Assembly: GCA_951406725.2 (NCBI GenBank)
Contig: OX597818.1
Span: forward strand, 37,944,001-38,008,000
Reading direction: 5' to 3'
Source: Octopus vulgaris
Taxonomy: Eukaryota
Length of the DNA: 64,000 bases
Part shown: piece after piece, positions 55,701 through 63,524 of the stretch
How positions within the stretch are numbered: position 1 is the stretch's first letter
Layout: each line of letters begins with the position of its first letter
Made by a program: the position numbers

Positions 55701-57738
55701 TATCCGTTATATCAAATATTCATTATTGTTGACTCCCAATACAATATCATCAAATATCTATTATTGTTATCTATTGTATCAAATATCCAATACATTATCA
55801 TCAAATATCTATTCAGCAATTTCTATACAATGAAACAGGAATAAGGAAAGACAAATACTGAACAAACTTACATTAGCTAAATCAATGAGAGTTTCACATT
55901 CAGCTTTCGATGCCAACCCATCGGCAATAAATCTTTCTTTGCCCAGCATCTCTTTCTCAGTAGAGACCACTTCAACTCCTTGATTTAATAGATCATTTAA
56001 TACTTGGCTTCGGCTTTCAGAAGTATTCAACATAATCTGCTGGTCCATGTTCCTAAGAAGGATCAGAGCATCTAAATGGTCGATTTCATCTTGCATGGGG
56101 TCATTTCCAAAAACATTCCACAAAACACATCTTTCCATTTCTGATTCGTTGAAAGGTTTCACACCAAGTGGATCTGTTGACCTGAAGAGGACCATTCTGC
56201 CACACCTTGGTCGAATAATTATCTATAACAGTGAAGAAAAAATTAATTAAAACCAAATAGCTAGCAGAGTCAATTGAGTACTGGGTTACTCAACATCATG
56301 TCTATAACCACTCAGTGTATCCTAATTAGTCAATAAATAGATAGTATGCAGGTACAATACATGAACAAATTGAGCACAATAATTGGGAAATGATTTGCGA
56401 ACTTGCAGGGGCTAAGTTAAACAGCATTCAACTTAATGGAGAAGAATGCACTCAGCCAGGTTGCATGACAAGGAAGGCTTCAGTGATGCTTGTGATTCAG
56501 TGGGCTATGAGACTTACCACCATCAATATCAATAAATGAATTATAATTAGTGACTGATTTTGATCATTGATATGATGGATGGTTTGACCAAAAGCATCAT
56601 TAGCTCTTTGACATAGCTCCACACTTTGGAAACCACGAGACCCTGGACAAAAATATAAGAGAATATGGCAGCGAGCTGGCAGAAACGTTAGCACGCCGGG
56701 TGAAATGCTTAGCGGTATTTTGTCTGAGTTCAAATTCCGCCGAGGTCGACTTTGCCTTTCATCCTTTCGGGGTCGATAAATAAAGTACCAGTTTCGCATT
56801 GGGGTCGATGTAATCTGTTTCTTTATTGCCCACAAGGGGCTAAACATAGAGGGGACAAACAAGGACAGACAAACGGATTAAGTCGATTACATCGACCCCA
56901 GTGCGTAACTGGTACTTAATTTATCGACCCCAAAAGGATGAAAGGCAAAGTCGACCTCGGCGGAATTTGAACTCAGAACGCAACGACAGACGCAATACCG
57001 CTAAGCATTTCGCCCGGTGTGCTAACGTTTCTGCCAGCTCGCCACCTTGGGGTTGATGTAATCGACTTAATCCGTTTGTTTGTCCCCTCTATGTTTAGCT
57101 CCTTGTGGGCAGGAAAGAAATATATAAGAGACAGTTTCACTTATATCTCAAACACATTTATCTGGCTCAATTACCATATCTGTAGAGTTCAACTCTGATT
57201 GATTTATAGTGTCCAGTGGCATCCCTTTACATTCTGAGTTCAAACCCCACTTAGGTTCGTTTTGCTTTTCCTCCATTTGATGATAATAAAGTAAGTATCA
57301 GTCAATAAGTAAATACTAGGGCCCAATGTAAACAGTTATACTCAGGAAGTTTAATGATTAGAAAAAACAAAAAGAAATGAAAAGAAAATAACAACACTAC
57401 CTCTTCAGGCTTAGCAAAATAACTCCCACCAGCTTTAGGAATGCTTGAAAGATGTGTTATACTCCTGGAAATAGAAAAACAAATGGGAACATGTAATCTC
57501 AGAAGTGTCAATCATAGAAAAAAGCAAAAAAAATTATAAAAACCTTACAAACAAAAATAAATAGAAATCTGTAGAAAATTTTCCAAAGTTTCTTCTTCGA
57601 TACATAACTTGTTGGTGCAAAATGTATGTATATAGGGAATCCTTGGTACAGGAGTGTATATTTGTAAAAGTGAAGCTGAATAACTTTTCTGACAATTATT
57701 TTCCACTTTAATGATTAAATGTTTACTAATTGTCAACT

Positions 57739-57805
<67 letters not shown>

Positions 57806-60800: not shown

Positions 60801-63524
60801 CTCTGTTGGTCACAACGACAAGAGTTTCAGTTGATCTGATCAATAGAACAGCCTGCTCAAGAAATTAACTTGCAAGTGGCTGAGCACTCCACAAATACAC
60901 GTACCTTAAAGTAGTTCTCAGTGACACAGAATGTGGCATGGTTGACCATTTGAATTATAGGCACAACTCATTCTGCCAGCTGTGTGGACTGGAGCAACGT
61001 GAAATAAAGTGTCTTGTCCAAGGACACAACATGTGCACCGCTGCTGGGAATAGAATTCACATCCTTACAATCATCATCATCATTATCATCGTTTAACATC
61101 CGCTTTCCATGCTAGCAAGGGTTGGACGATTTGACTGAGGACTGGTGAACCAGATGGCTGCACCAGGCTCCAATCTTGATCTGGCAGAGTTTCTACAGCT
61201 GGATGCCTTTCCTAACGCCAACCACTCTGAGAGTGTAGTGGGTGCTTTTACGTGCCACCGGCATGAGGGCTAGTCAGGTGGTACTGACAACGGCCACGCT
61301 CAAATGGTGTTTTTTCATGCCACCTGCACAGGAGCCAGTCCAGCAGTACTGGCAATGACCTCGCTCTAATGTTTTTCACGTGCCACTGGCACAAGTGCCA
61401 ATAAGGCGATGCAGGTGACGATCAGGCTCGAATGGTGCTTTTTATGTGCCACCGGCACGGAAGCCAGTTAGCTGCTCTGGCAACGATCATGCTTGGATGG
61501 TGCTCTTAGCACTCCACTAGCACGGATACCAGTCATCGAATTTGATTTCGATTTTAATTTCACTTGCCTCAACAGGTCTTCGCAAGCAGAGTTTAGTGTC
61601 CAATGAAGGAAAGGTACACATAAGTGGGCTGGTTACACCCCTGGCATAGGCCACGAGGTTATGGTCTCACTTGCCGGGTCTTCTCAAGCACAGCATATTT
61701 CCAGGAACCAAATATCCCTAACCATTAAGTCAGGCACTTTCACAACCCTTTAGCATTTAGACCAGCTATATCCAACACAAATATTCTACCTTGTTTTTAT
61801 GTTCAGACTGGCCAGATCAGGCCTCTCACAATACCCTACAATGTCATTCTGAAAAATAAGCAAGCACATCAATGAAATCTCAAAGTTATGAGATAACGTA
61901 TGATTATTTCTAACTAACATTTCATAACAATGTGAATAAATAAGTATAATTTATTTATTATTATCCAGAATAATTTGGATTCTAAAGGTTTAAAAATAAC
62001 ATGTAAAATATTTTTCGGAATTATATAAACAAATTTTTAGGAAAGGACTAATTCCTCTCACAAAGATACACATCAACCTTTATTTAACATCTTTCACAAA
62101 AAGAGAAAGAAAAAACAGCCAAAATATCTAGAGATCATTCATTCTCCTCAGTAAAAATAATAAATTTGAAAATACAAATGTTTACTTTGTGATATTATGA
62201 AAATAAGATTAACAACAATAATATAGTCTGTTCTTACCATTCCATTTATCTTTGCAAATAACCTTTGTGGAATAATGGTAAATATTGTGATTTAAATATT
62301 TCTGGATGAACTGCTTTGCAATACCACTCATCCGAAGCAACAAGCGTAATCCAACATTGTAGTCTTCAGAAACATTCATTTTCTGTCAAAAGATAAAATT
62401 TTTTTAAAATTATAAAATGAAAATCAAATTCAATGACTAAAATTAAATTCGATGACTGGCATCTGTGCTAGTGGGGTACAAAGATCACCATATGAGTATG
62501 ATAATTGACAGAGCAGCTAACTGGCTTCCGTGCTAGTGACACATAAAAGGCACCATTCGAGTGTGATCGTTACCAGCGTCGCCTTACTAGCACTTGTGCC
62601 TGTGCTAGTAAGGTGCCAAGTACACCATCCAAGAGTGATCGTTGCCAGAGCAGCTAATTGACTTCAGTGCCGGTGGGCACGTAAAAGGCACCATTCGAGC
62701 GTGATCGTTACCAGCATTGCCTTACTAGCACCTGTGCTGGTGGTATATGTAAAAAGATTCGAGCGAGGTCGTTGCCAGTACCACCTGATTGGCCCCTGTG
62801 CCGGTGGCACGTAAAAGCACCCACTACACTCTCGGAGTGGTTGGCATTAGGAAGGGCATCGAGCTGTAGAAACTCTGCCAGATCAAGATTGGTGCCTGGT
62901 GCAGCCATCTGGTTCACCAGCCCTCAGTCAAAATCGTCCAACCTATGCTAGCATGGAAAGCGGACATTAAACGATGATGATGATGAAAAAATAAAACTAT
63001 TGAATAAAACTCTAGGCTAAGGATTATTTAGTTATATAACTACAACAACTACTACTACTACTACTTCATCATCATCATCATCTTCGAACATCCATTTCCC
63101 ATGTTGGCAAGGGTTGAACAGTTTAATGAAGTTCCAATGTCACCTTCAACTTGATTTCTACAGCTAGATGCCCTTCTTAATACCACCCACTTTATAGTAT
63201 GTATTGGATGTTTTTTTCATGCTACCAACACTAGTGAAGTTTGCCAAGAGCCCCTATCAGATACCTATGGGAGCAGTATAGCTGATTCATTTGATCCCTA
63301 CTTCCATGTATATATCATCATCAGCAGCAGCATCGTCATCGTTTAACATCCACTTTCCATGCTGGCATGGGTTGGATGGTTTGACTGAAGACTAGAAAAC
63401 CAGGAGGCTGCACCAGGCTCCAATCTGATCTGGCAAGATTTCCACAGCTGGATGCCCCCTTCCTAACGCCAACCACTCCAAGAGAATAGTGGGTGTTTTT
63501 TACATGACAAACACACACACGTGT

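Follow-up and report, generated by a model that had tools for sequence, protein, structure and literature searches.

A degenerate dioxygenase domain upstream of the catalytic domain in a prolyl 3-hydroxylase of Octopus vulgaris and its molluscan relatives

Vertebrate prolyl 3-hydroxylases (P3Hs) contain one catalytic domain and need the non-catalytic partners CRTAP and PPIB, the loss of which leads to brittle-bone disease; to our knowledge, these enzymes have been studied almost only in vertebrates. Here we describe a P3H (leprecan) gene in a 64,000-nucleotide stretch of the Octopus vulgaris genome (contig OX597818.1; hereafter the window), the product of which carries, upstream of a standard 2-oxoglutarate (2OG)/Fe(II) dioxygenase domain (domain B), a second, degenerate copy of the same domain (domain A). 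We propose that domain A is a duplicated and catalytically dead domain that has been maintained by selection and most likely serves as a docking or positioning module next to domain B, an explanation to which we would assign a probability of about 0.65. The part of it that concerns the nature of domain A, namely that it is a dead but selected domain stemming from an ancient internal duplication, is very probable; the specific role in docking or positioning is a tentative assignment at somewhat less than even odds.

The minus strand of the window (33.8% G+C, with zero N) contains the 3' part of the gene, encoding residues 458-956 of the protein, which a tblastn search with the O. sinensis P3H1 isoform X2 (P0004, 956 aa) distributes over ten exons between 62382 and 10240. 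The sequence for residues 1-457, which comprise the tetratricopeptide repeat (TPR) region and the initial ~60 residues of domain A, is located past position 64000; a search of 62383-64000 for the preceding exons of domain A found none, which places these outside the window. Full-length analyses were carried out on public proteins such as P0004, which is 99% identical to the window, and the window itself was searched exon by exon. The translation of exon 55872-56222 alone retrieves five public proteins (5 of 103 candidates), namely P0004 (99%), O. vulgaris isoform X1 (P0005, 746 aa, 100%), a protein of Argonauta hians (P0007, 947 aa), P0006 and P0008. P0005 agrees with the window even in its odd C-terminal tail, a read-through into the intron below 43643, and this exact match has the leprecan TPR region, which is found by Pfam (PF23557) with an expectation value (E) of 2.3e-73 in P0004 and is also recognized in P0007 and P0008. 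Domain B is recognized as 2OG-FeII_Oxy_3 (PF13640, E 7.6e-12), and a phmmer comparison of P0004 with human P3H1 (8k0e_A) gives E 3e-107, with 190.8 bits for the domain B part. The last exon (10240-10563) encodes an acidic, Ser-rich tail with the C-terminus NEEL, a putative ER retention signal, the relatives ending in KEEL, SDEL, HEEL, HDEL or RDEL. By its sequence, the product is shown to be a predicted endoplasmic reticulum (ER)-type prolyl 3-hydroxylase with the order TPR region, domain A, helical linker, domain B and acidic tail with a KDEL-like end. Domain B retains all ligands, with the iron-binding His 13039-13041 and Asp 13033-13035 in exon 12965-13079, Arg 15995-15997, the equivalent of human P3H1 R569, in exon 15982-16132, and the distal His 10507-10509 and Arg 10477-10479 in the last exon; it is a standard P3H 2OG/Fe(II) dioxygenase and the predicted active copy.

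The two domains are encoded by two sets of four exons that mirror each other. The upstream set consists of exons 62238-62382 (145 nt; helix and first core strand, P0004 residues 459-507, ending in phase 1), 60580-60643 (64 nt, phase 1 to 2), 57401-57464 (64 nt, phase 2 to 0) and the junction exon 55872-56222 (351 nt), and the downstream set of their counterparts 15982-16132 (151 nt), 12965-13079 (115 nt), 12745-12817 (73 nt) and 10240-10563 (324 nt, with the stop codon at 10240-10242). Intron phases are identical in both sets (0-1, 1-2, 2-0, 0), and the exon ends of A and B coincide in alignment position. AG acceptors are present at all eight exons and GT donors at seven, the eighth (10240-10563) ending at its stop codon. 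Domain A (approximately residues 395-592 of P0004) aligns with domain B (approximately 625-890) by BLASTP with E 6e-15 and 25% identity over 211 columns, a likeness far beyond chance, and even within the window the last exons of the two sets cross-match by tblastn (E 6e-5 each way). The A-B alignment contains one gap of 17 residues, which falls exactly at the HxD stretch of domain B: domain A runs from KWN directly to GHC, and exon 12965-13079 opens with a stretch containing SHPIHAD, so that the counterpart exon 60580-60643, in which this part is missing, is 51 nt shorter. The junction exon is a single open frame of 117 codons, which begins with the end of domain A (56097-56222) and continues in its 3' remainder with a linker, predicted to be a long helix, and ~125 nt that form the start of domain B. 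The exon block for the dioxygenase unit was duplicated in tandem before the split of cephalopods, gastropods and bivalves, giving rise to domain A, and the mirrored intron positions and phases are a consequence of this event. A preliminary description of this stretch, made from the DNA alone, had already pointed to the exons mirrored in sequence and phase, the upstream absence of SHPIHAD, a Leu in place of the distal His, the persistence of the Cys pattern and of the Arg of an RC motif, and a duplication junction within exon 55872-56222, and had traced them to an old internal duplication that left a ligand-deficient domain still kept in frame. The A-B alignment, together with the survey, trees and residue comparison given below, bears out these readings.

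The kinship of domain A is poorly visible to domain libraries. In all three full-length proteins submitted to Pfam, 2OG-FeII_Oxy_3 is found only in domain B, along with TPR_leprecan; domain A yields one sub-threshold match to 2OG-FeII_Oxy_5 (PF13759; 18.6 bits against a cut-off of 27) in one of the three. The preliminary description had looked to such a search to recognize the dioxygenase domains, and it does so for B but not for A. The eight exon translations taken singly match no relevant Pfam family because the pieces are too short, and in a phmmer search against PDB sequences human P3H1 aligns to the TPR region and domain B, with nothing on residues 362-624. The structural prediction, which the same description had put forward, is clearer. 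An AlphaFold2 model of domain A, built on a 16-row alignment that pairs A with the A regions of other proteins, reaches a mean predicted local distance difference test (pLDDT) score of 85.9 and a predicted template-modelling score (pTM) of 0.86. Foldseek recovers at least 482 PDB matches for it at E <= 0.001, of which the four best are all chain A of human P3H1 (E 1.3e-12 to 5e-10, 21-22% identity, template-modelling (TM) score on the query 0.73-0.77), followed by other 2OG oxygenases such as PHD2 with TM scores of ~0.5. The models show domain A as keeping the predicted P3H-type double-stranded beta-helix fold, and the loop in place of HxD is their least confident region.

According to the report on the human complex (PMC11381544), P3H1 coordinates iron through H587, D589 and H659 and binds 2OG through R569 and R669, and the H587A, D589A, H659A and R669A mutants still assemble into the complex with most activity lost. 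All of 14 mollusc A domains lack the first His of HxD. Ten of them retain the distal His; it is replaced by Leu, Val and Val in three cephalopods (in octopus by the Leu codon CTT at 56166-56168, against CAT for His at the counterpart 10507-10509) and by Tyr in Solemya. The counterpart of R669 is an invariant Arg (14/14; 56130-56132 in octopus), an Arg equivalent to R569 is kept in four (Lys in octopus, at 62251-62253 in exon 62238-62382), and the Trp equivalent to W675 in none. Five conserved Cys are found in 14, 14, 14, 13 and 14 of the 14 domains, respectively, and the mollusc B rows covering a site keep all these residues. When all 18 degenerate A domains are considered, HxD is found in none, the distal His in 14 and the Arg equivalent to R669 in 17. 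Octopus domain A should be inactive because it has none of the three iron ligands and the human ligand mutants lose most activity. The comparison shows an order of events in which the HxD stretch was lost early and the distal His later, in cephalopods; of the ligand loss in the preliminary description, the HxD deletion is indeed ancient, but the loss of the distal His is not, as the ten mollusc domains attest. Domain A would then have become unable to hydroxylate, a pseudo-enzyme domain in which the fold, the five Cys and the equivalent of one 2OG-binding Arg stayed in place under purifying selection.

The same residues could be read differently, in that domain A might be a regulatory ligand-binding domain, tuning domain B through the iron-free binding of 2OG, succinate or some other carboxylate in its remnant pocket. 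The near-universal Arg, the distal His in most of the degenerate domains and the retained fold speak for such a function. However, in mollusc A domains the second 2OG-binding Arg is mostly gone, the adjacent Trp always and the HxD strand is deleted; cephalopod A also lacks the distal His; and the retained Arg sits in the RC motif beside an invariant Cys, where it may be structural. We consider a ligand-sensing role, the chief competitor of our proposal, unlikely.

The two-domain arrangement is widespread. A word-based protein search with domain A added nothing to the five cephalopod proteins named above (5 of 293 candidates), and the wider distribution emerged only from a profile search and from a search with domain B. 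When 1.84 billion representative sequences were searched with a profile built from three cephalopod A domains, 39 matched at E <= 0.001, 18 of them at <= 1e-10, and 19 sequences were retrieved; for domain B, the best 120 of 561 matches were listed. We scanned 68 of these 120 and the Helobdella protein P0028 (69 rows in all) with hidden Markov models (HMMs) of mollusc A and B, the 52 rows outside the scan being vertebrate, tunicate, hemichordate and arthropod proteins of 531-865 aa and others lower in the list. Among the matches listed, an A-type region without HxD precedes a B-type region in 40 of the 41 named mollusc proteins scanned, made up of two cephalopod, 17 of 18 gastropod and 21 of 21 bivalve rows, with a partial Lottia model (P0046) as the single exception; in P0134 of Potamilus a simple pattern found no HxD in B either. 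The nemerteans Lineus and Tubulanus (2/2) and the annelids Helobdella and Dimorphilus likewise have an A domain without HxD followed by B, and the annelid Owenia has one domain. In Lingula there are two domains, both with HxD, of which the first also keeps the distal His and the second is incomplete in each of the eight isoform models seen. One domain only is found in the bryozoans Watersipora and Bugula, three arthropods, Ciona, Branchiostoma and Saccoglossus. This lophotrochozoan survey, which the preliminary description had envisaged, upholds its view that the duplication is old, and corrects its scope: the duplication is older and wider than guessed and specific to neither octopus nor cephalopods.

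Two further gene-level peculiarities were seen among these proteins. Some bivalves have two two-domain P3H-like genes (P0107/P0123 in Sinanodonta, P0020/P0134 in Potamilus and P0124/P0128 in Mya); the locus tags of the paired genes are neighbouring in both unionid mussels, which suggests tandem gene copies there on top of the internal duplication. In a partial Elysia chlorotica protein (P0024), the first part of A runs directly into B to form one chimeric domain; it stays in frame because the phases are mirrored, and it may be an assembly or model artefact.

Phylogenetic trees give the duplication a minimum age. In a first tree of 33 domain rows, from which the partial B rows of Potamilus, Lingula, Helobdella and Ruditapes X6 were left out, a single clade unites the 14 mollusc A domains (100/99) and another the ten mollusc B domains (95/96); with 45 rows both recur (100/99 and 95/90). 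These topologies show that the duplication predates the split of cephalopods, gastropods and bivalves. In the 45-row tree, mollusc A groups with the A domains of the nemerteans and Dimorphilus at 88/88 only, unstarred and on long branches, Helobdella_A and P0125_A are placed apart on a long branch, and Lingula_A has no resolved placement. A single clade made up of all 18 degenerate A domains is not rejected in an approximately unbiased (AU) test (p 0.23), nor is it thereby shown. The duplication may go back to the ancestor shared by molluscs, nemerteans and annelids, a single older origin being possible. A separate case is P0021, a protein of 643 aa on a 2.0 kb contig with a signal-like start, no TPR region and an RDEL end. 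It has two P3H-type domains, both with HxD...H, which in the 45-row tree are sisters (97/90); being each other's closest relatives, they point to a separate duplication.

Domain A bears the marks of constraint. Between Octopus and P0008, identity amounts to 51% in the TPR region, 57% in domain A (0 gaps in 198 columns) and 85% in domain B. There are no indels in domain A among three cephalopods and neither stops nor frameshifts, and the whole of A is kept in 31 of 32 isoforms or models, the exception being the partial E. chlorotica P0024. The pattern is that expected of a folded domain under purifying selection, apparently looser than that on the catalytic domain. One might instead regard domain A as a decaying relic without a function of its own, carried along since its removal would break the frame or the folding. 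The long branches leading to A (0.86-0.98 changes per column on the stem, 1.1-1.3 on the cephalopod stem) and the loss of further catalytic residues lineage by lineage agree with decay. Against it stand the presence of A in nearly all mollusc proteins scanned among the matches listed, as well as in nemerteans and annelids, the clean and ungapped frame with an identity above that of the TPR region, and the invariant Cys framework with a confidently predicted fold. Moreover, the mirrored phases would let exon skipping remove A in frame, and yet it is kept in all models but one. A mere relic is, in our judgement, quite unlikely.

The preliminary description had left room for two weaknesses, that a missed microexon might supply HxD and that the A exons might not be joined to those downstream. 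In the intron 60644-62237, there are zero candidates for an open phase 1-1 exon with H.D and AG/GT(GC) borders, and the ligand-deficient reading stands. As to the joining, the open junction exon links the end of A to B directly, and seven full-length two-domain proteins (P0008, P0101, P0104, P0106, P0118, P0120 and P0121) come from contigs of 2.9-4.7 kb. The P3H gene spans more than 50 kb in octopus, and these contigs are consequently intron-free and transcript-like, which suggests that they represent transcripts in which the exons of A and B are joined in the mRNA. That domain A is still an enzyme, by means of unconventional metal ligands or a missed exon, is highly unlikely: non-cephalopod molluscs do keep one His and one Arg in A, and the first domain of Lingula the full HxD...H, but the intron holds no phase-compatible open microexon with H.D, the same junction recurs in all 14 mollusc A domains and in the transcript-like contigs, a single Ala substitution of any ligand abolishes most activity of human P3H1 (PMC11381544), and the models are at their least confident in the loop that replaces HxD. 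The chance that the two-domain protein is an annotation artefact merging two neighbouring genes is negligible for, even though most of the evidence comes from automatic gene models and tandem P3H-like genes exist in unionid mussels, A passes into B within a single stop-free exon, with no intervening TPR region, signal peptide or KDEL-like end, and full-length two-domain proteins occur on the small contigs.

For the function of domain A, we propose that it forms a rigid, disulfide-braced, non-catalytic module beside domain B, which would assist in holding or positioning either the collagen chain or some partner within the complex. The roles suggested in the preliminary description, namely substrate binding, dimer mimicry or chaperoning, are likewise conjectural. 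In a full-length model of Argonauta P0007, a long helix (595-628) links A and B. Contact between the two domains was predicted with residues 626-865 of P0007 against 396-604, alignments not being used. The score was 0.40 (runs 0.40, 0.54 and 0.09; best of three controls 0.00), with the runs agreeing in at least 50% of contacts and a partner pLDDT of at least 71. The score mark is reached by 51 of 78 solved complexes and by two of 108 mismatched pairs; scores at or below 0.60 account for only five of the 78 solved complexes but for all four passing mismatches (of 180). This gives a hint, weakly supported, of A-B contact.

Several observations weigh against the explanation that we favour. The contact score passes weakly, in a range where wrong predictions outnumber right ones, and paralogous beta-helix domains could obtain it from their likeness to solved oxygenase dimers. 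The full-length P0007 model has a pTM of 0.50 and does not confidently predict the place of A relative to the TPR region and B, and we accordingly draw no conclusion on the domain arrangement. Domain A evolves about three times faster than domain B (0.38 against 0.12 changes per column on the path between Octopus and Argonauta), and the case for purifying selection on it is judged from protein conservation alone. Given that the Arg is invariant and the distal His often retained, a ligand pocket may have survived, which would fit a sensor better than a pure scaffold. Finally, the RefSeq entries are gene models made automatically, and P0005, the one for O. vulgaris, is truncated.

Besides the mirrored sets, domain B is encoded in part by two exons that carry variants of one loop: the cassette exon 49990-50085 (minus strand, 32 codons; GDGY...SPH, variant 1) and exon 43643-43756 (minus strand, 38 codons; GDGY...SPHT, variant 2). 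They are paralogues, both in phase 0, and align to the same stretch of human P3H1 (approximately 504-517). O. sinensis isoform X2 uses both; the Argonauta protein and P0008 lack the cassette exon and use the second only. The Patella vulgata isoforms X1 and X2 contain one each, and different ones, isoforms of Haliotis, Crassostrea and Lingula none, one or two, and a single Helobdella model carries two. They resemble an ancient pair of alternatively used exons. Compared with P0004, P0006 lacks 18 residues of domain A that immediately precede the part encoded by the window's first exon and hence fall outside the window; in position, this piece matches the GDGY exon of domain B, and in the sequences compared the mirroring of exons seems to continue upstream beyond the window. 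Seven of the 32 isoforms or models end right after the GDGY exon or exons (P0005, P0006, P0050, P0019, P0070, P0064 and P0068), and these short forms are seen in Octopus, an octopod-like protein, Haliotis, Patella and Lingula. The O. vulgaris short form P0005 reads into the intron below 43643 (region 43400-43756, minus strand). The product of such a short form would consist of the TPR region, the dead domain A and a stub of domain B without the catalytic core; it may exist as a non-catalytic isoform or merely reflect an error of gene modelling.

CRTAP and P3H4/SC65 are non-catalytic leprecan paralogues that act as partners of an active P3H, and in the vertebrate complex PPIB faces the P3H1 catalytic domain. 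The short predicted isoforms would resemble CRTAP and P3H4 in having no active site. CRTAP, however, has no dioxygenase-like domain, and in the full-length proteins described here a dead dioxygenase domain lies in the same chain as the active one. A bolder variant of our proposal would make domain A a built-in partner, a subunit facing the catalytic domain across the substrate slit like vertebrate PPIB, with the short isoform that stops after 43643-43756 playing the part of CRTAP. Trochozoans would in that case build the complex from one gene, with a pseudo-enzyme domain conserved since before the split of molluscs, nemerteans and annelids. Such a division of labour is doubtful, and we regard it as unlikely.

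Leaving aside this variant, the docking or positioning module that we favour has a counterpart in design. The octopus protein agrees with vertebrate P3H1-3, represented by the human P3H1/CRTAP/PPIB structure (PDB 8K0E and others, PMC11381544), in the TPR_leprecan region, the C-terminal HxD...H 2OG-FeII_Oxy_3 domain with two Arg and, in sequence, the KDEL-like end. It differs from human P3H1 in the additional degenerate dioxygenase domain of ~200 residues and the helical linker between the TPR region and the catalytic domain; the A-B linker helix of the Argonauta model resembles the helix that joins these two regions in human P3H1. A catalytic domain combined with a second, metal-free beta-helix domain in one protein is also a feature of the ribosomal prolyl 3-hydroxylases OGFOD1, Tpa1p and Ofd1; according to PMC4396695, the second domain of OGFOD1/Tpa1p is thought to be a duplicate, and the roles proposed for it are substrate or partner binding, stabilisation and oligomerisation. 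There, the dead domain is C-terminal, the proteins are cytosolic or nuclear and the halves are 12% identical, whereas here the dead domain is N-terminal to the active one, the protein is predicted to be ER-resident and the halves are 25% identical. No OGFOD1 chain appears among the PDB sequence matches of P0004 at E <= 0.01, which comprise only P3H1 and CRTAP. The resemblance is one of design, not of descent.

Two-domain proteins are already present in RefSeq as automatic 'prolyl 3-hydroxylase 1-like' models with the extra domain unannotated. A literature search, which did not extend to subscription journals and supplements, found nothing on two-domain or pseudo-domain P3Hs, and PMC2938197 mentions leprecan in passing.

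Elsewhere in the window, a 184-codon open frame downstream of the gene (4606-5157, minus strand) matches a mariner-type Transposase_1 (E 3e-18, partial DDE domain) and is a transposon remnant. The introns around the exons of domain A (52000-64000) contain 13 direct repeat families and 11 inverted pairs of 60-176 nt with 60-96% identity, for example 53918-54091/56812-56985 and 61130-61305/62757-62932, with inverted copies on either side of exons 57401-57464 and 62238-62382. Long low-complexity stretches rich in repeats of the TA/CA type (22440-23044, 27835-28492 and 33114-34144) lie within the 27 kb intron from 43643 to 16132, and on both strands they contain spurious open frames 160-306 codons long.

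The domain libraries miss domain A, and the proteins that contain it are consequently annotated as ordinary P3H1-like enzymes. A pseudo-dioxygenase kept inside an enzyme across a large part of the animal tree would be a natural experiment in the re-use of a dead copy of a 2OG oxygenase, and would show how a collagen-modifying complex can be built differently. The graded series that runs from HxD in both domains of Lingula, through the loss of HxD in most lineages, to the additional loss of the distal His in cephalopods makes it possible to follow the dismantling of an active site in which fold and disulfide framework are preserved.

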